The position numbers were made by a program, and so were the translations under genes. 61,087 nucleotides of DNA from Candidatus Woesearchaeota archaeon. GTDB taxonomy: Archaea > Nanobdellota > Nanobdellia > Woesearchaeales > WJIZ01. Within the stretch, counting starts at the first letter, position 1, and each line of letters begins with the position of its first letter. Of the stretch, positions 22,690 to 60,844 are shown one piece after another. The stretch lies in the NCBI GenBank assembly GCA_018221205.1, contig JAAOYF010000027.1, positions 1 through 61,087 of the forward strand. Direction: 5' to 3'. The notes under the pieces are model-generated. The model ran no database searches. It was given only the letters and a program-made list of their open reading frames with translations, and was not told where the DNA came from.

Positions 22690-22940
22690 TCTTTAACCTC
22701 GGTCTTTTCAGAAGACCCTACAATCTTCACACCTGGAGTGTAGGCCTTTCCTGTAAATTTTACATCGCATTTCCGGCATTTCCATATGCCGACAGCAATT
22801 CTTTTCACTGCTTCCTTATTGCAGTAAGGACATTTATGGAGCTTGCGCTGTTCTTTCTCTATCTTGGCGAAATTATGCCTAGCGGTACGGCCGTATCGTG
22901 AGCCGAATCGTTTCATTGATCCTAATTTTTCGTCTGCCAT
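22686..22940 (-). CDS. rpl37ae: 50S ribosomal protein L37Ae (eL43)
   Basis: Start set at MADEKLGSMKRFGSRYGRTARH. Zinc ribbon CPYCNK...CRKCDVKF. The track's longer ORF (to 22994) extends into repeat/insert sequence. Confidence 0.85.
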   Translation of the reverse strand: MADEKLGSMKRFGSRYGRTARHNFAKIEKEQRKLHKCPYCNKEAVKRIAVGIWKCRKCDVKFTGKAYTPGVKIVGSSEKTEVKE

Positions 22941-22941
22941 T

Positions 22942-23050
22942 TTAAATATAACATATGGGCCTACCCATAACAACTGGTTACGCCCGGTTGACATGCAATG
23001 AGGGTTTCGCTTCGCTCAAGCCCTCTTAAATATAACATATGGGCCTACCC
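22942..23050. repeat. Element A: 25-nt perfect direct repeat pair flanking a 59-nt hairpin insert
   Basis: ttaaatataacatatgggcctaccc occurs at 22942..22966 and at 23026..23050. The insert (22967..23025) ends in the hairpin GAGGG-TTTCGCTTCGCTCAAG-CCCTC. The repeat contains the tRNA 3' end plus an AT-rich box. Confidence 0.9.
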
Positions 23051-23143
23051 GGAAATTCACGATAGTCTTCACGACCAATCGTTTTGAACCGGGGTCGTCT
23101 GGTCCCAAACCAGAAAGGATGTTCCAAGCTACCCCATAGGCCC
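23040..23143 (-). tRNA. tRNA-Pro(UGG)-like gene with a ~29-nt insertion (putative non-canonical intron) in the T-loop
   Basis: Hand fold of the minus strand. Acceptor stem GGGCCTA/TAGGCCC plus discriminator A. D-arm GGGT-AGCTTGGAAC-ATCC. Anticodon arm TCTGG-TTTGGGA-CCAGA. T-stem CCCGG/CCGGG enclosing TTCAAA[ACGATTGGTCGTGAAGACTATCGTGAATT]T. There is one extra nt between the D and anticodon arms in this fold. Confidence 0.55.
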
Positions 23144-35652: not shown

Positions 35653-35766
35653 TTATCCCGGACTAATGTCCAATTTCTTCTCTAATTCAGCAATAGCCAG
35701 TGTTGTCTTGATAATGGTGTCGGGGTTGAGGGACATGGTCTGGATGCCGCATTGGACAACGACAAG
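35653..35766 (-). pseudogene. Diverged duplicate of the last ~36 codons of ppsA (orphan 3' fragment)
   Basis: Hand translation gives LVVVQCGIQTMSLNPDTIIKTTLAIAELEKKLDISPG then a stop. The ppsA C-terminus reads EFVVQCGIGSMSLNPDTVIKTTLSVAKLEQKLGISPE then a stop. An in-frame TAG lies immediately upstream. Many synonymous differences occur at the nucleotide level. Confidence 0.8.
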
Positions 35767-36716
35767 CTAGAAACGAGATCATTCAGTTTTGCCTGCCGAT
35801 CCTTGTGAGCTCCAAAACCAATGAGATTGGCATATGTTCTGAGGTTTTCCTTGCCGCCGATATAGAGGCTTTCCATACGATATCTTGTGGTTCTTTTATG
35901 ATGCGTGTATGATATATTCAAGAAATTTAGCAGTTTCTTTACGAAATTGATTTCATCAGGATTCTTCATCTCCAGACGGACATATCTTGTTTTATTGTTG
36001 TATACTGTACCTTCTCCAGCCATAAGACCACGGAGATACGCGGCTGCACGTTGCGGATCATTCAAAGCAGCAGTTTTTACATAGTCTCTGAGAGCAAGGA
36101 AAAGATCGATGACAACAGCATTGTCGACACAAACTCTATATTTGGGGATTTTATTGTATTGTTGATATGAGATTCTTGTGTCATGAAACCGTTCATAGCT
36201 TCCCATGTAACCGATTGGCAAAATAACGTTTATGTAATAAGGAAGATCCGGAATGAATTTCCTGAGCCATCTAATATAAAACCTTATTACATCGATATTT
36301 GAATTAGTGAATCGGAGCTTTCTGGCTTTTTTAGTACCAGAATCTCCTGTGTCACCTTCAGCAATATAAAGACCATAACCTTCGACGAATAATTCTGTTA
36401 GTTTGATTTGTTTCGGTAAAGAAATCGGTTTGTTATGGCTTCCCCATGAATAGTAGCCGGTGATTTCGTCATAAACCTTATGTTTGTCTACACCAAGAAC
36501 CGAAGCAATTTTCAATAGCCTGATGAGATTATGGCCATAGTTCTTCTTGAAAGGCCAATTAAAGGTTTGGCTGTCGATTTTGATATATTGTTGATTGAAT
36601 TCTTCAATAGAGCCGGATTTAGAATTGATTTTAAATTTTAGTTTTTCAATAAAGCTACTGTTGACTGATACGAAAACCTTCTCGAGATTTGAAAGCAGGG
36701 CAGCTGTCTTATACAT
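35682..36716 (-). CDS. LAGLIDADG homing endonuclease (double-motif, free-standing)
   Basis: 344-aa ORF with two LAGLIDADG-type motifs (LFVEGYGLYIAEGDTG and AAYLRGLMAGEGTVY). Its last ~28 codons read through the ppsA 3' fragment in a different frame. Confidence 0.75.
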   Translation of the reverse strand: MYKTAALLSNLEKVFVSVNSSFIEKLKFKINSKSGSIEEFNQQYIKIDSQTFNWPFKKNYGHNLIRLLKIASVLGVDKHKVYDEITGYYSWGSHNKPISLPKQIKLTELFVEGYGLYIAEGDTGDSGTKKARKLRFTNSNIDVIRFYIRWLRKFIPDLPYYINVILPIGYMGSYERFHDTRISYQQYNKIPKYRVCVDNAVVIDLFLALRDYVKTAALNDPQRAAAYLRGLMAGEGTVYNNKTRYVRLEMKNPDEINFVKKLLNFLNISYTHHKRTTRYRMESLYIGGKENLRTYANLIGFGAHKDRQAKLNDLVSSLSLSNAASRPCPSTPTPLSRQHWLLLN

Positions 36717-43078: not shown

Positions 43079-43328
43079 ATGGTAAGTGTATGCTTGAGGT
43101 CTTTCAAAGACCTCGGAGAAGAGCACAAGGAGGAACTCCTCAAAAATCGGAGTTCCCCAAGGCAAAGAGGGACAACAACATGGTAAGTGTATGCTTTGAG
43201 ATTTTTGCAAAAAATCTCGTAAAAAGCGTGGGTTTCGCTTTTGTAGGCAAAGCCTACAAACCTTTGAGCATAGCTCAAAGTTCGCTCAAGCCCACGATTA
43301 GGGGGATAACATGGTAAGTGTATGCTTT
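43079..43328. repeat. Elements B1/B2: triplicated start-codon segment ATGGTAAGTGTATGCTT separated by 84-nt and 114-nt hairpin inserts
   Basis: Copies lie at 43079..43095, 43180..43196 and 43311..43327; the third is the GH57 start. B1 contains the hairpin GAGGTCTTT-C-AAAGACCTC. B2 contains GAGATTTTT-GCA-AAAAATCTC, GTAGGC-AAA-GCCTAC and CTTTGAGC-ATA-GCTCAAAG, all nested inside CGTGGG...CCCACG. Confidence 0.9.
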
Positions 43329-49400: not shown

Positions 49401-50300
49401 CAGACCGTAGAAGTCCAAGAATCCAGGATGACTTGCTTTCAAGATATGTCGGTCTACATCTACAAGTATCAAGTAGTAGCCAGATGCATTTGTGTTGGTC
49501 GTAAGACCAGAAATATTGATTATTGTATTGTTCAATGGAGAGCCATCTCTTATATCAGTCACATACCCGTCGATGAAACTCTTCTCCTGGATGGAGCAGT
49601 TGCTCAAAGGATCAGATATAGGATCAGGGAAGAAATAATAGGTGATATTGTCAGAAGATTCTGGAATGGGCAGCATCATTTCATAATTATAGTAGGAATT
49701 GTCAAAGCCTTGCTTAAATTCTTCTGCTTGGACTGCAAAGAAGATGTTTCCGGCAGAATCCTGCAATGCACCCATCAACCAGCTCACTGCTTCTGGGAAG
49801 AGATCAATCGCAGGAGCAGTGATATTCAATCCTCCTAGGATTACATTGATGGTCTCTGTGAAACTCATATTCGCGGAATACACTGCTTGTGAACTGACTT
49901 CCATGAATGCGTCTATCGCAGAGAGATTTGCAGCAGATGCACCTGAGGAAAAATCCAATTGCGATTGATTCAGGGTGCTGGCATATATATCTAATCCGGT
50001 TGTACCATGACAATTGAAGAAGAGATCGTACCTATTTAGGTCGCCGGCCGCCGAAGTATAGGGCCAATAATCATTATTATTCGACGGACTGAGGATAGCG
50101 ATACCATAATAGCCAGTCCACCAGTTCATCTCTACTGGCCCGACTATCTGCACTTCATAGATATAGCCGGCTGTTCCGTTGACTGCCCAGCCGAAGTAGC
50201 CGACATAATCTTTGACATAAGTGAGAGTGATGAGAGCAAGGACTAGAGAGATGATTATTATGAACAGATACAAATACTTGTATTGTCTCTTATGTATCAC
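46437..50300 (-). CDS. Giant single-pass membrane protein: extracellular W-x-G-Y-Y-G-like and CarboxypepD_reg-like repeats, TM helix, cytoplasmic HerA/FtsK-like (DUF87) P-loop ATPase, coiled-coil tail
   Basis: 1287-aa ORF with a GTG start overlapping the RHH-1 stop (GTGA) and an N-terminal signal anchor. MNWWTGYYG...GLDIYAST resembles the secreted family. Three G-Y-V-x-D...N-A-S-G-x-F-like repeats follow. TM helix IFGWLPVWVLALIVALLLLGFITYLII. Walker A HSIVAGSTGGGKS, VVFDPT, Walker B MLVYDEIH, and LLISQV. The tail is K/E-rich. Confidence 0.75.
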   Translation of the reverse strand: MIHKRQYKYLYLFIIIISLVLALITLTYVKDYVGYFGWAVNGTAGYIYEVQIVGPVEMNWWTGYYGIAILSPSNNNDYWPYTSAAGDLNRYDLFFNCHGTTGLDIYASTLNQSQLDFSSGASAANLSAIDAFMEVSSQAVYSANMSFTETINVILGGLNITAPAIDLFPEAVSWLMGALQDSAGNIFFAVQAEEFKQGFDNSYYNYEMMLPIPESSDNITYYFFPDPISDPLSNCSIQEKSFIDGYVTDIRDGSPLNNTIINISGLTTNTNASGYYLILVDVDRHILKASHPGFLDFYGLVEAEVGEIIQYNISMVPDFLGKFDFNAILRGYVFQNTSACIANFSIAACAIPNATVSAGGGVGITNASGRFSFPMQSGNRTAVAVKTGYFPYSKDISIDIYEEKELNLSLIPIPIEADLNGTVNGYVFDEDTLTRISNATVAIGGYLTYSDTNGGFTLNLPASAYYLIIGIKDGYFPYIGNLTGITELVEGGTVNITIPLGEIPEQVQVQPKPEEETQTRTRTRTDESAFPIDVQKPSPLEVFISINEIIKKIQRGNYVDEQFTIFNFRKVPIRLRLGVEGNVAPSIQLSDTELLIPANSSKEVNVRLLGNQDEGKYLGNIRIRGDYDYNIPVYLIITEDIDIPVRTLLMDLRPLKKNAFIGYDFKYELDLINLLIGRKYNVNLSFFISDLNKTNKTPIGEHGLNIETFASLIRSYKIPKDFETGDYLLGVEAEYLGISSSTDTLFSVVYPYHQYRIFGWLPVWVLALIVALLLLGFITYLIIKREMEKRKRFHAKVDYKELPKEGPRSLFVGKIAETTKNAYFDMDILTVHSIVAGSTGGGKSIAAQVIIEEVLIKGAAIVVFDPTAQWSGMLRKCTDKKMLSFYPAMGMKPKDARAFPGNIRAIKDSREIVAIYKNWRPGEIQVFTTSTLDPKDYDIFVANTIREIFHSNLQEYRGLRYMLVYDEIHRILPKFGGSGQGFIQIERGCREFRKWGIGILLISQVLQDFVGQIKANINTNVQMKTRDEGDLNRIKTNYGEEFIQALIKAPVGSGMVQSSAWNRGRPYYVTFRPILHSVVRLSDEELEKYNKFNDIVDDLAFQFEQLEKESQDVFDLKLELKLAQDKIKSGNFNMVQIYLDGLTPRVEKLWNKIGKKPQKLQRKLVDVEAMEKELEAARKEHEKAADKEKEVKKKEVESRKEEKKEETKLSKEQIEANLESITQLGKQIENLLPYKDWLTINDLMMEVKNIALPKDQVEKKDKVVKKLEGAIELTKNPPKGEKKEVKK

Positions 50301-50431
50301 TCTGCGTCCATCCTCCTTTTGATTAGGTACTCAAAACCGTGAGATCTGTTTGCGAATGTTTTATCATCAATCTTCTTATCTATCCAATCAACTAAATCTT
50401 TGTCTATTGTTATGGTGATGCGCTCTTTCAT
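50297..50431 (-). CDS. Ribbon-helix-helix (CopG/Arc-like) micro-protein RHH-1
   Basis: Not in the track. Hand translation gives MKERITITIDKDLVDWIDKKIDDKTFANRSHGFEYLIKRRMDAE. The beta-strand ITITID plus the RSH..EYL helix pattern fits an RHH fold. Confidence 0.6.
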   Translation of the reverse strand: MKERITITIDKDLVDWIDKKIDDKTFANRSHGFEYLIKRRMDAE

Positions 50432-50562
50432 TCTTGGTCTATCTTCCTTTTCACTAAATATTCAAAAGCATGAGATCTGTTCGCGAATGTCTTGTCAGTT
50501 ACTTTCTTATCTAGCCATCTGAGAAGTTCTTTGTCTATTGTTATGGTGATGCGCTCTTTCAA
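50428..50562 (-). CDS. Ribbon-helix-helix micro-protein RHH-2 (TTG start)
   Basis: Not in the track. Hand translation gives (M)KERITITIDKELLRWLDKKVTDKTFANRSHAFEYLVKRKIDQE, a tandem paralog of RHH-1. There is no in-frame ATG upstream. It has an ATGA overlap with RHH-1. Confidence 0.5.
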   Translation of the reverse strand: MKERITITIDKELLRWLDKKVTDKTFANRSHAFEYLVKRKIDQE

Positions 50563-50672
50563 TAGAGAACTATCATACTGAGTAATATATAAAGGTTTCT
50601 GTTAAGTAGATTAGTATAGAAAAAAGTATATTTATTAACGAAAAATATTATGTTCGCATACTGAGTAATACT

Positions 50673-54962: not shown

Positions 54963-55083
54963 TTATTCTAATTGCACGTAGAAGTAATACTCGAGCATTT
55001 TCAAATCCTCGGCAAAGAGTACCACATCTTCATTACATTCGGAGTGGCACAGACAAATCACTTATTCTAACTGCACGTAGAAG
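54963..55083. repeat. Element D: 22-nt direct repeat (21/22) duplicating a gene 3' end, flanking a 77-nt insert
   Basis: ttattctaaTtgcacgtagaag (54963..54984) and ttattctaaCtgcacgtagaag (55062..55083). The second copy is the reverse complement of ...FYVQLE-stop. The insert shares the 16-nt CAAATCCTCGGCAAAG with element C. Confidence 0.85.
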
Positions 55084-55820
55084 AAGTAGTCAGTAGGAGT
55101 GTCATCTCCTAAACGTCCATTCTCTGCAACGATCATCTGGAAATTCCAGATATTACCATCAAAACCGACTATGCCATCAGGCTGGATGATCGAAGTATAG
55201 ATAGGGATGTTGGCAGTGAGGTCATATAATATCAGCTCCTGATATGTGTCTTTAGAGCTTTGGTTTGAGCTATTATATAGATAGGCTGTCGGGCAGGTCT
55301 GATTGATACGGGTGGTACCGATATAGAAATCATCATAATCGGCTGTGAGATTGAACGTCTCGTTGATACCGTCTGATGCTGTTGCTGGGATATCTAATGA
55401 TGATTCATATGCTGATATATCAAGATAGAGCCCGCCTGTCCTGGTGAAATTATAGCATTCTATATTACCGTCTGAGAAGTCTACCTCAGATGTTGAAGCA
55501 TAGATCTGGCCTGAAGGATTAGAGGTCTGCCAGTCATAGAGGGTGTATCCACTAGAGTCTCCTAACTGGATCTTTCCGGTGACGTTTCCATAATAACCCT
55601 GCCATGTCTTTGTTGTGGTCCAGGCATAGATATTCAACTGGCTCACATTACCTGCAATCGCTGACAAAGTGTCAGAAGCAGTGGACGGCCTTCTTGTGGA
55701 GTCCACTATGGTCAGGTTCTTTGCACCCTCTGGAAGATTCACTGATAGCGCTGATAGGCTCTGGATTATCAAGAGGATTAGGAGAATGATTCCAAGCCTG
55801 TTTATCATCTTCTTTTTCAT
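55062..55820 (-). CDS. Secreted W-x-G-Y-Y-G-N-V-T-G family protein, paralog 4
   Basis: 252-aa ORF with a signal peptide. Core motif TWQGYYGNVTGKIQLGDSSGYTLYDWQTSNPSGQIYAST. C-terminal motifs WNFQMIVAE and YFFYVQLE followed by the stop. It is closest to paralog 1. Confidence 0.75.
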   Translation of the reverse strand: MKKKMINRLGIILLILLIIQSLSALSVNLPEGAKNLTIVDSTRRPSTASDTLSAIAGNVSQLNIYAWTTTKTWQGYYGNVTGKIQLGDSSGYTLYDWQTSNPSGQIYASTSEVDFSDGNIECYNFTRTGGLYLDISAYESSLDIPATASDGINETFNLTADYDDFYIGTTRINQTCPTAYLYNSSNQSSKDTYQELILYDLTANIPIYTSIIQPDGIVGFDGNIWNFQMIVAENGRLGDDTPTDYFFYVQLE

Positions 55821-56278: not shown

Positions 56279-56348
56279 AGTGTGTTATTTGAATACTAAT
56301 TAAGAGAATTGGTATATAAAATTAACTGTTAGAGAATACTAGGTAAGA

Positions 56349-56433
56349 GAGATTTTTGCCCGCTCACTCTGTTCGCTTAAAAACCTCGCAAAAAGCACTC
56401 AAGTGGGATATTGACTTCGTCAAGTCCCACGAA
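56349..56433. repeat. Element E: hairpin-module sequence related to element B2, no clear flanking direct repeat
   Basis: It shares GAGATTTTTGC (11/11) and CTCG[CT]AAAAAGC with B2. Terminal hairpin GTGGGA-TATTGACTTCGTCAAG-TCCCAC (56403..56430). Confidence 0.6.
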
Positions 56434-58251: not shown

Positions 58252-59556
58252 ATGAGCAAGGCTACCCGGCAATTAATGACCTATATCAATGACCGCATAA
58301 AAAAAGGACATTCCCTGCACGGTATCGAAAAAGAGCTGATCAAACAGGGATACCCTAAACATGTGGCAGAGGGAATCATCCTCCATGTCAAATACCGGAA
58401 GAACACCTTTCAGCTCTTCGGGCTGTTGATCCTGGCAATACTTTTTGTCGCCGGAATATCCATCACTGGCTCGGGTGTCATCGGTATGGCAACAGTCAAT
58501 TATGCCCGAACCTATTCTGATACTGTCAACATTGTTGTTGAGAATCCTGATACGCTCACTTGGAACCCTTCGCAGGAAGGAGCAATCGTCTCTTTGCTGC
58601 TGACAGGACACTTTCGTGGCAACGGAAGCGCGATGGTGAGTCTCCAGAAAGAAGGAGAGGAATTAACCATCATCGATTCCTATAATGAATTCCTGTTGAA
58701 GACCTTTGAGGACACAAGATACTTTGAACTGGCATGTGAAGAGACGTGCAGCCTGGAAAATATGGGAGAGGGTCCGTATTCATTGGTATTTGATTTTAAC
58801 GGAGCAGTTGTTGAGCTGACCACTATAAACTATGACTTGATCGTCACAGAGGATGTTTCTGTTGTCCCTGAGTTCATTACCATACCTTCACAGATCACGA
58901 CAGAAGACTCCACACTCAGTTTTGACCTGAGCACCTTCTTCACTTCTTCAGCAGAGGTCGTCTACAACGCCTTGGCTGAGGAGCAGTTCTTGGATGTTTC
59001 TGTCGAGGGAGATATTGCCACGGTGAATACTAAAAGGATCGGAAAAAGCTATGTCTATTTCATAGGAGAGATAGAGGACAGGCAATATATCTCTAATCTG
59101 GTGGAGATCGATGTCCAGGAAGGCCCGGTCAGCCAGAGATTGATCACCGGAGAGATCAAGAGCGGGACTTTTGAAGTGAAGCAGACATTTTGGGAGATAT
59201 TCCTGTTCATGCTGCTGATACTCTTCCTTGTTATTTTCATACCTATCTTTATACGGTCTGTCAGAAGGAGGCATCTGCCCAAGAAACATACGATCAAGAA
59301 GGCAGTCAAAGTTGTCAAGGAAACGGTCGATGAGCTGAAAAAGCCTATGCCTAAGAAAGAAGCACGATCATCATTGTTGGATCTATTCTATGAGCAGTGC
59401 GACAAATTTGAGGAAGCAGAGAGCAGGAAGGAGAAAGAGCGGATATATAGCAGGCTGAGAAAGATCTATACTACCATCATGAAATCTTCTCTGCGGATGA
59501 AAGATAAGAAAGTCTTATATACTAAATTAGAAGAGTATTATAAGGATCTTCAGTGA
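58252..59556 (+). CDS. Bitopic/two-TM surface protein, hypothetical
   Basis: 434-aa ORF. A cytoplasmic N-terminal helical domain is followed by TM1 (LFGLLILAILFVAGISI), a ~260-aa external region, TM2 (IFLFMLLILFLVIFIPIFI) and a basic cytoplasmic tail. Confidence 0.5.
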   Translation: MSKATRQLMTYINDRIKKGHSLHGIEKELIKQGYPKHVAEGIILHVKYRKNTFQLFGLLILAILFVAGISITGSGVIGMATVNYARTYSDTVNIVVENPDTLTWNPSQEGAIVSLLLTGHFRGNGSAMVSLQKEGEELTIIDSYNEFLLKTFEDTRYFELACEETCSLENMGEGPYSLVFDFNGAVVELTTINYDLIVTEDVSVVPEFITIPSQITTEDSTLSFDLSTFFTSSAEVVYNALAEEQFLDVSVEGDIATVNTKRIGKSYVYFIGEIEDRQYISNLVEIDVQEGPVSQRLITGEIKSGTFEVKQTFWEIFLFMLLILFLVIFIPIFIRSVRRRHLPKKHTIKKAVKVVKETVDELKKPMPKKEARSSLLDLFYEQCDKFEEAESRKEKERIYSRLRKIYTTIMKSSLRMKDKKVLYTKLEEYYKDLQ

Positions 59557-59561
59557 GTTCT

Positions 59562-59754
59562 ATGGTAAGAAACAAAGCGTTAGAAAAAACGAAAAGACAG
59601 GAGGATTTTCCAAATCCTCGGCAAAGTTACCGAAATCAAATGATTTCGGAACCTCAAGAATCTTTGATTCTTGTAGGAGCACAAGAGGGAACATTCGCTT
59701 CGCGAAGTTCCCTAAGGCAATGGTAAGAAACAAAGCGTTAGAAAAAACGAAAAG
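59562..59754. repeat. Element C: 35-nt perfect direct repeat duplicating the DRG-GTPase start, flanking a 123-nt multi-hairpin insert
   Basis: atggtaagaaacaaagcgttagaaaaaacgaaaag occurs at 59562..59596 and at 59720..59754. Insert hairpins: GAGGATTT-TCC-AAATCCTC, CCGAAATCA-AA-TGATTTCGG, CAAGAATC-TTT-GATTCTTG and GGGAAC...GTTCCC. Confidence 0.9.
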
Positions 59755-60844
59755 CAGCCTTCCGGATAGAGTGAAGGAGATTGAAGATGAGATCTCCCGC
59801 ACTAAATATAATAAGCGTACTCAAGGCCATGTCGGCCTGCTGAAAGCTAAACTCGCCCAGCTGAAGGAAAAACAGATCACTCGACGTAAAGGAAAAGGAA
59901 AGACTGAAGGATATTCTGTCAAGAAATCCGGAGACGGAACTGTCATCATAGTCGGTTTTCCTTCTGTCGGCAAAAGTACGTTGTTGAACAAAATATCAAA
60001 TGCGAAATCTCAAGTAGGAGCGTATGCTTTCACCACTCTTACTTGCATTCCAGGTATGCTTAATTATAAGGGTGCGAAGATTCAAGTCTTAGATGTTCCT
60101 GGAGTGGTTAGAGGAGCTGCTTCTGGAAAAGGCAGGGGGAAAGAAGTCTTATCTGTTGCGATGAATTCTGATCTGGTGCTTTTTGTCATTGACGTCCATA
60201 GTCCGGAGCATTATCCTATCTTATTGAAAGAGATAAGAGATAGTTATCTTCGGATCAATGAAGTAAAACCTGATGTCCGTATCAAGAAAAAATCCCGTGG
60301 AGGCATAGGTATAGGGACGACTGTCAAACTTACTCACCTGGACAAACCCACTATCAAGAAAATGCTGAATGAATTCAGGATAACCAATGCTGATGTGTTG
60401 ATCAGGAGCAATATCAATCCTGACCAATTGATCGATATCATCGAAGGGAATAAAAAGTATATCTCTGGCATTGTGGTGTTCAATAAAGTCGATATCGCTA
60501 CTCCGGCACAGATTGCTCAGGCAAAAAAGATCATCAAGCCTGATCTATTGATTTCTGCAGAGAAAGGAGAAGGAATCGATGAACTGAAGGAACTGATCTT
60601 CCAACGATTGGGTTTTATGAGGGTCTTCTGCAAAAGGCAAGGCCAGAGAGCAGATATGGGAGAGCCACTTATTATGCGCCGGGGGGATGGCCTTAAAGAG
60701 ATGTGCGAGAAATTGCATCGGGATTTTGTCACCCGCTTCAGATTTGCCCGGATCTGGGGCAGTTCTAAGTTTCCAGGGCAGGCTATCCGTAAAATGAGCT
60801 ATCCTCTGAAAGATCAGGATGTTGTTGAGCTGATCCTTGATTGA
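59720..60844 (+). CDS. Developmentally regulated GTP-binding protein (DRG/Obg-like GTPase with TGS domain)
   Basis: 374-aa ORF with G1 GFPSVGKST, G3 DVPG, G4 NKVD and a C-terminal TGS-like domain. Confidence 0.85.
   Translation: MVRNKALEKTKSSLPDRVKEIEDEISRTKYNKRTQGHVGLLKAKLAQLKEKQITRRKGKGKTEGYSVKKSGDGTVIIVGFPSVGKSTLLNKISNAKSQVGAYAFTTLTCIPGMLNYKGAKIQVLDVPGVVRGAASGKGRGKEVLSVAMNSDLVLFVIDVHSPEHYPILLKEIRDSYLRINEVKPDVRIKKKSRGGIGIGTTVKLTHLDKPTIKKMLNEFRITNADVLIRSNINPDQLIDIIEGNKKYISGIVVFNKVDIATPAQIAQAKKIIKPDLLISAEKGEGIDELKELIFQRLGFMRVFCKRQGQRADMGEPLIMRRGDGLKEMCEKLHRDFVTRFRFARIWGSSKFPGQAIRKMSYPLKDQDVVELILD

Follow-up and report, generated by a model that had tools for sequence, protein, structure and literature searches.

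The 61,087-nt stretch of DNA analysed here (the window), from a DPANN archaeon of the Woesearchaeota/Nanoarchaeota type, contains a gene for a DRG-type GTPase whose start is present twice. The gene encodes a protein of 374 aa with the domains MMR_HSR1, MMR_HSR1_Xtn, and TGS (Pfam). Its nearest homologues are 73-77% identical, and those that are named belong to 'Candidatus Woesearchaeota' or 'Nanoarchaeota' MAGs; no other record was found for the exact protein. The first 35 nt of the gene, ATGGTAAGAAACAAAGCGTTAGAAAAAACGAAAAG, occur at positions 59562-59596 and again, with 100% identity, at positions 59720-59754. By our own arithmetic, about 1e-12 chance repeats of a 35-mer are expected per 61 kb. 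The two copies enclose a 123-nt insert, termed element C, and only the second copy runs on into the GTPase ORF (59720-60844). The gene upstream ends at position 59556, five bases ahead of the first ATG. A preliminary description of this DNA had reported this perfect duplication around a four-hairpin insert and the continuation of the second copy only, and all of it was borne out.

The predicted fold of element C had a minimum free energy of -49.3 kcal/mol compared to -26.3 ± 3.3 kcal/mol for dinucleotide shuffles (z = -6.9). None of 200 shuffles equalled this value, in agreement with the four hairpins (H1 to H4) listed in Table 1. The complementary strand folded nearly as well (z = -5.3). The insert ends with the 3' tail TAAGGCA. 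It had also been claimed that element C has modules in common with three other inserts of the window (elements D, B1, and A), and all of these modules were found: CAAATCCTCGGCAAAG is identical in C and D (16/16 nt), AGTTCCCYAAGGCAA is present in C and B1, which also agree in a 3' region of the form GAGCACAAG-hairpin-YAAGGCA, and the loop TTCGCTTCGC, found in C and A, is the loop of the hallmark hairpin of the family described below.

Table 1. Positions of the GTPase locus with element C and of the related inserts in the window
Feature	Position	Strand	Remarks
Element A, 53 nt	22936-23050	+	exact hallmark hairpin; 31-nt repeat (2 mismatches) of the tRNA-Pro(UGG) 3' end plus 20 nt
tRNA-Pro(UGG) with ~29-nt T-loop intron	23040-23143	-	ARAGORN match only after removal of 26-31 nt
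Elements B1 and B2 between three copies of the GH57 gene start ATGGTAAGTGTATGCTT	43079-43327	+	two different inserts
Element B1	43096-43179	+	3' region in common with C
Element B2	43197-43310	+	model R1: 41.9 bits, E = 1e-8
Element D, 69 nt	54963-55091	+	30-nt repeat (4 mismatches) of the last 9 codons and stop of minus-strand gene 55062-55820
Sixth, degenerate family copy	~56341-56433	+	between two minus-strand genes; resembles the L096 and L105 elements
Possible archaeal TATA box TATTATAAGG	59534-59543	+	~20-28 nt before the first ATG; proposed by eye
Upstream ORF	59562-59726	+	54 sense codons plus TAA (59724-59726); crosses the whole element; ends 4-6 nt into the true ORF (ATGGTAA)
Direct repeat, copy 1	59562-59596	+	orphan copy of the first 35 nt of the GTPase gene; begins the upstream ORF
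Element C, 123-nt insert	59597-59719	+	four hairpins, H1-H4
Element C, H1	59601-59619	+	5' hairpin of the family, then GGCAAAG
Element C, H2	59630-59649	+	
Element C, H3	59652-59677	+	
Element C, H4	59686-59713	+	diverged form of the hallmark hairpin; loop TTCGCTTCGC kept, stem differs
Direct repeat, copy 2	59720-59754	+	functional start of the DRG-type GTPase gene
DRG-type GTPase gene	59720-60844	+	insertion target, left intact; Pfam

We compared the locus with those of relatives, as had been proposed in search of an uninterrupted site. At four orthologous DRG loci (L001, L003, L155, and L157), the same upstream neighbour is followed by a plain spacer of 9-65 nt before the GTPase start, and no insert is present. 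Therefore, element C is an insertion and not the ancestral state. The earlier suggestion that the event was recent agrees with the perfect repeat and with the empty site in relatives, and C is probably a primary insertion. The start of the GTPase gene is also duplicated in L158/L159, where the 14-nt repeat AATATGGTAAGAAA flanks a separate family insert, 117 nt of hairpins; the junction in L158 lies at +11, compared to +35 in the window. We considered orthology of C and the L158 insert and dropped this idea, since no significant similarity was found beyond the loop of the last (3') hairpin. Because both the junctions and the inserts differ, these are independent events and the GTPase start is a repeated target.

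A wider family of mosaic hairpin elements

The hallmark of the family is the hairpin GGGTTTCGCTTCGCTCAAGCCC, whose two closing pairs covary. Among the 29 copies of an alignment, these pairs were GC in 18 and AU in 11 copies at one position, and UA in 12, AU in 9, GC in 6, and CG in 1 at another, with at most one unpaired cell; the 5' hairpin of the family showed compensatory changes in the same alignment, too. The basic unit of ~56-63 nt consists of a 5' module of ~31 nt, the 22-nt hairpin, and 2-5 further nt. A variable hairpin and a linker such as GACCAAAAG make up the 5' module, and the 3' hairpin is conserved (GGGTTTCGCTTCGCTCAAGCCC or variants). The 5' part is more variable than the 3' stem-loop and at times shortened, and some elements contain additional hairpins nested between the modules or inside loops.

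A metagenome scan with a single pattern, GGGTTTCGCTTN{0,30}CGCTCAAGCCC, which biases the sample to copies with a perfect hallmark hairpin, returned 71 contigs, almost all carrying the exact 22-mer. The same architecture was found in independent assemblies from JGI, NCBI, ENA, and Logan, and the hallmark hairpin gave no match in viral contigs. Regular-expression searches with short motifs (TTCGCTTCGC, CTCGGCAAAG, one mismatch) were too noisy to be used. The literature was searched by taxon, by features, and by the hairpin sequence, and no description of the family was found. The family is widespread and, as far as these searches show, undescribed.

We built a covariance model (R1) from aligned metagenome copies of the basic unit. 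This model recognized element A with 43.1 bits (E = 6e-9) and also element B2 (Table 1). Element C scored 8.4 bits (E = 8) and was thus not detected, so that its family membership rests on module homology. As we read the sequences, C is tied to the family by its 5' hairpin with the following GGCAAAG, by the alignment of H2-H3 with L097, and by the loop of H4. The H2-H3 region aligned with the composite element of L097/L134 with a score of 48 (shuffles, 15.1 ± 2.2; none of 2000 as high). Element C also has the flanks typical of the family, namely a gene-end duplication, here of 35 nt, and the intact GTPase gene on its 3' side.

At least six related mosaic hairpin inserts are present in the window, and element C is thus not unique to one site. 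Elements A and B2 have GGGTTTCGCTT...CGCTCAAGCCC in common. The degenerate sixth copy carries a nested insertion in the loop of its 5' hairpin, and its flanking repeat has decayed. Neighbouring genes at B, C, and D are 2-5 nt apart. There is thus no free intergenic DNA at these sites, and the duplication creates it. No transposase, integrase, reverse transcriptase, or Cas gene was found among the 55 ORFs of the window (Pfam). Rfam gave no match at the gathering threshold in the window, CRISPR families included, and at permissive E-values around A and C only chance-level matches (E ≥ 0.8). ARAGORN gave no match at all in the intact window, and both ARAGORN and Rfam missed the tRNA-Pro(UGG) gene. 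Its T-loop intron indicates that the host processes non-canonical tRNA introns.

Three loci, those of the window, L001, and L008, have copies of the GH57 gene start on either side of family inserts; about 75 other GH57 loci showed no such duplication. Across 1.23 Mb of GH57-bearing loci, R1 matched L037 and L008 only, so that the element is sparse in most relatives.

The family occurs in two settings: as a sense-strand tRNA intron, or beside genes and flanked by a duplication. For the first setting, ARAGORN identified tRNA-Gly(CCC) genes with introns of 42-59 nt at the canonical position that hold the hallmark hairpin, and other tRNAs carry a family element in the D-loop region. The intron copies were in sense orientation throughout. 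A single tandem case was seen, an array with a 68-nt period and one hallmark hairpin per unit next to a tRNA-Gln gene (L115:8511-8605).

Flanking duplications, polarity, and mode of insertion

Gene-adjacent copies are flanked by a direct duplication of 15-84 nt. The targets are tRNAs and conserved housekeeping genes. Duplicated tRNA parts are either 5' ends up to the D-loop or 3' ends from the T-loop or T-stem outwards, and tRNA-Pro ends are duplicated around family elements in L037 and L063. Among protein-coding genes, the start of the Spt5 gene and the 3' ends of the L35Ae and SpoU-type methylase genes are affected. The preliminary description had argued that the duplication is either part of the insertion mechanism or selected to preserve the gene. 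The first of these views gains support from the long gene- and tRNA-end duplications found next to family members, both within the window and across many independent assemblies. Where such a duplication is long enough to span the gene boundary, it leaves one complete copy of the gene.

In all of the ~27 cases that could be resolved, the intact gene or tRNA lies 3' of the sense-oriented element and the orphan fragment lies 5' of it. These cases comprise ~12 tRNA loci, 7 gene starts (target in sense), and 8 gene 3' ends (target in antisense). The 5' junction of the element falls 11-84 nt within the gene and the 3' junction just beyond it. In about two thirds of the cases the duplication starts with A. 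Terminal inverted repeats were not found in A, B1, B2, C, or D, where the best ungapped match was 8-12 of 25, and the 3' tails (1-62 nt) vary in sequence and are not A-rich. Because the polarity is strict and no terminal inverted repeats are present, we infer a polar, 3'-end-first insertion of the target-primed type and not a symmetrical cut-and-paste reaction.

The 3' end of the element would be joined first, at a site in the A/T-rich flank of a gene, and the second strand would be opened at a variable distance downstream, which corresponds to the geometry of target-primed insertion. An RNA intermediate is an attractive possibility in such a process, since intron copies would release the element with defined ends. 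Models based on RNA ligation and template switching were considered and dropped, since the element runs antisense to its target at gene 3' ends, an arrangement that a sense-sense RNA chimera cannot give.

Some copies suggest an additional route of spread. The two 84-nt repeat copies of L146 encode the same 27 C-terminal residues and differ at 13 positions in 12 codons, all synonymous. Such a pattern indicates that the copies derive from two functional alleles, since a neutrally drifting orphan would not retain it. In older copies, moreover, the gene-internal part of the repeat near the 5' end of the element is identical and the part near the 3' end has diverged. In L091, mismatches amount to 0/15 on the 5'-end side compared to 5/16 on the 3'-end side, and L008, L001, and B are similar. 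The simplest reading would be that a related lineage acquired the whole repeat-element-repeat-gene arrangement through homologous recombination, in which the orphan copy of the duplicated gene end served as the left homology arm. Spread by recombination would explain why family members are concentrated at tRNAs and at the termini of highly conserved genes.

In five contigs (L112, L132, L139, L146, and L153), a family element lies at the 3' end of a gene that seems to be the same in all of them. The C-terminus of its product was confirmed to be that of a SpoU-type methylase in L146, and the other four contigs were matched to it by eye. In L139 and L146, at least, this gene is convergent with a gene for a membrane protein, CorA-like as judged by eye. 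The site may be a hot spot, or it may reflect recombinational spread.

Upstream ORF and expression of the GTPase gene

The orphan start of the GTPase gene opens an ORF that crosses element C. As described before, it is free of stops and ends at the TAA inside the second ATGGTAA; its length is 54 sense codons and not 52 as initially counted. Seven start-site insertions of the family (B1, B2, C, L001, L008, L150, and L158) were compared. The distance between the two start codons was 2 mod 3 in all seven. Likewise, frame 0 of the orphan start was open across the element in 7/7 cases, and frame 1 contained stops in 7/7. Each upstream ORF stopped between -5 and +6 of the true start, either with a TAA or TAG four bases into the true ORF (ATGGTAA, GTGGTAG), with the TGA of ATGA, or five bases upstream. 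B1 and B2 each have an open upstream ORF that closes with TGG TAA. Frames without stops are common in such short elements (60% of the frames in 58-nt element cores), so that an open frame alone is weak evidence and the frame spacing carries most weight. The probability of this spacing is (1/3)^7, or ~(1/3)^6 if B2 and L001, which are perhaps not independent, are counted as orthologous. This conserved design supports the second earlier view, that the duplication is selected to preserve the gene. The common beginning ATGGTAAG of loci B and C that had been pointed out can be explained as well: ATGGTAA supplies a stop in the frame of the upstream ORF and also encodes Met-Val-Ser/Arg, the N-terminus conserved in both proteins.

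In archaeal operons, start/stop arrangements of this kind serve translational coupling by termination-reinitiation, and the design of the upstream ORF suggests that the same happens here. Furthermore, the TATA-like TATTATAAGG before the orphan ATG suggests a leaderless or nearly leaderless mRNA that begins at repeat copy 1. With such an mRNA, the true internal ATG would depend on reinitiation. Ribosomes would then begin at the orphan ATG, which probably lies close to the 5' end of the mRNA or directly at it. They would read through the four hairpins as part of the 54-codon upstream ORF, terminate at the TAA within ATGGTAA, and reinitiate at the true ATG.

Origin of element C, alternatives, and related systems

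Taken together, element C was probably created by insertion of a small, non-coding, non-autonomous mobile element, a member of a family of mosaic hairpin elements in Woesearchaeota-like DPANN archaea; this explanation includes polar insertion, translation by reinitiation, and recombinational spread. A derivative of a classical DNA transposon, which would be MITE-like and mobilized by a DDE transposase acting in trans with widely staggered cuts, is unlikely. Like MITEs, the family is short, non-coding, non-autonomous, and multi-copy. Its target duplications vary in length, and insertion sequences of the IS1634/IS1549 type, which give long, variable direct repeats, provide a precedent for them. 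But the elements have neither terminal inverted repeats (12 of 25 matches at best) nor a fixed short duplication (15-84 nt in the family, 35 nt at C), and no transposase was found in the window. Moreover, family members also occur as sense-strand tRNA introns, and the orientation is polar (~27 to 0) where symmetrical cut-and-paste would give both orientations. We also find it improbable that no dedicated machinery is involved, that is, that the host takes up circular or linear DNA comprising the element and part of a gene end into its genome through homologous recombination or homology-facilitated illegitimate recombination, the duplication being the host copy plus the donor copy. The exclusively synonymous differences of the 84-nt copies in L146, the stronger divergence of older repeats beside the 3' end of the element than beside its 5' end, and the repeated targeting of the same conserved genes in different lineages all speak for such a process. 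However, it cannot make the first copy at a new locus, and at C the 35-nt repeat is perfect and four relatives have no insert at this site. The DRG insertions of the window and L158, with their different junctions and elements, are independent.

The insert could further be a bulge-helix-bulge (BHB) intron of the mRNA, removed together with one repeat copy by endonuclease and ligase, which would restore the normal message. Excision by the splicing endonuclease had been raised in the preliminary description, and both the tRNA introns among the relatives of the element and the T-loop intron of the host tRNA-Pro, which implies an endonuclease of broad specificity, would fit. Nevertheless, this is very unlikely: no message-restoring BHB motif was found, as a BHB scan of 59520-59800 gave two weak motifs that would remove 115 or 109 nt, not 158. 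An exact cut needs a self-complementary 4-mer in the repeat, where there is only a wobble GCGU without flanking helices, and the conserved upstream-ORF design would be pointless if the insert were spliced out. The strong structure and the conserved upstream-ORF/stop arrangement might instead point to a regulatory leader (an attenuator, thermometer, or upstream-ORF switch) that the host evolved by local tandem duplication and that is not mobile. This reading is largely refuted by the comparative data and highly improbable, since the insert is absent from four orthologous loci, its modules recur in inserts at unrelated loci and on unrelated contigs, and the same architecture is found at tRNAs and gene 3' ends, where translation control does not apply. 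Finally, a perfect repeat near k-mer length could be produced by misassembly, and the array-like GH57 locus with its three repeats and two inserts could recall off-target Cas1-type integration ('neo-CRISPR' repeat-spacer-repeat). We give hardly any credence to either, because the architecture is the same across the independent JGI, NCBI, ENA, and Logan assemblies. Furthermore, the inserts of 53-123 nt are homologous to each other and unlike spacers, a ruler mechanism would not account for repeats of 15-84 nt, the repeated sequence is that of the gene start itself, and cas genes are absent from the window.

Insertion of a mobile hairpin element, the reading we prefer, invites comparison with several known systems. 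SINE-type retroposons of eukaryotes are inserted by target-primed reverse transcription. Like them, the family has no inverted terminal repeats, variable target duplications, a conserved 3' stem-loop, a variable 5' part, and strict polarity. Unlike SINEs, it has no A-rich tail, its duplications reach 84 nt, no reverse transcriptase is encoded among the 55 window ORFs, and its RNA intermediate is hypothetical. Palindromic, modular elements that are tolerated within translated regions are also reminiscent of the Rickettsia palindromic elements (RPE) and of REP/BIME mosaics. RPE, said to have been described by Ogata and co-workers in 2000, reportedly lie in frame inside proteins, and the gene end is not duplicated; REPs are extragenic and have no target duplication. 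The MITE-like sRNA elements of Pyrobaculum (PMC6009581) were considered and are different from the hairpin family.

The 'transposing' tRNA introns of Thermoproteales, as summarized in the citing papers PMC10714607 and PMC3293823, form one family of small structured sequences that recur at several positions of different tRNA genes and are considered mobile (Fujishima et al. 2010, Mol Biol Evol 27:2233). The present family resembles them in that its members are tRNA introns, both at the canonical position and in the D-loop. It differs by its occurrence in a DPANN lineage, by additional copies at the ends of protein-coding genes and tRNAs with target duplications of 15-84 nt, and by the lack of a BHB motif in C. 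Integration of tRNA-targeting archaeal elements of the SSV/pNOB8 type leaves a tRNA fragment and an intron, according to a model presented by Sugahara et al. 2012 (PMC3293823). Here, too, an orphan tRNA fragment flanks the element and the tRNA is whole, and the gene-contiguous copy may derive from the donor. In contrast to those elements, which measure kilobases, encode a recombinase, and use one att site, the family is 53-123 nt long and non-coding and has many targets.

The origin and movement of tRNA introns and of split tRNA genes in archaea have been an unsolved problem for a long time. 'Transposition' of archaeal introns has so far been inferred from sequence similarity alone, with no insertion footprint. 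The hairpin family provides footprints: target duplications that are perfect or have decayed, a strict polarity, orthologous sites with and without an insert, and conserved genes that were hit more than once. These make the insertion mechanism testable in sequence data and in vitro. They also indicate how compact genomes with abutting genes can tolerate selfish DNA: the long gene-end duplication supplies the intergenic space, and at gene starts, expression appears to be maintained by an upstream ORF whose stop coincides with the real start codon. On a broader level, we tentatively raise the possibility, which we hold with less than even confidence, of an undescribed class of DPANN mobile elements. 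Its ~57-nt two-hairpin unit would exist both as tRNA intron and as DNA insertion and would spread by a polar, target-primed, and possibly RNA-mediated process. Long, variable gene-end duplications would make insertion harmless, serve as homology arms, and seed introns or split genes. If this holds true, the family would represent the first DNA-level footprint of archaeal intron gain. Duplications inside an RNA gene would be raw material for new introns or split genes, and those between abutting genes would render the insertion harmless and act as portable homology arms between lineages. On the practical side, such inserts make gene callers mis-call starts and tRNA finders miss tRNAs in DPANN genomes.

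Some further features were observed in the window and in related contigs. A free-standing protein of 344 aa with a LAGLIDADG_3 homing-endonuclease domain is encoded at 35682-36716 (minus strand), adjoining a gene for a PEP-utilising enzyme, with no obvious intron or intein. Between 10401 and 21501, ~14 ORFs have no Pfam match save for one helix-turn-helix protein; this may be a lineage-specific or foreign block. In L001:13312-13600 (also in L002), an AT-rich intergenic region contains many dispersed copies of TACTTACATATTAG. Two tandem 131-nt units at 50297-50558 (minus strand) code for paralogous proteins of 43-44 aa (MKERITITIDKDLVDWIDKK...), which look like ribbon-helix-helix proteins by eye and have no Pfam match; a similar pair is found at L003:17316-17560. 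Just upstream of the tandem units, the 14-nt repeat CATACTGAGTAATA occurs at positions 50574 and 50657.
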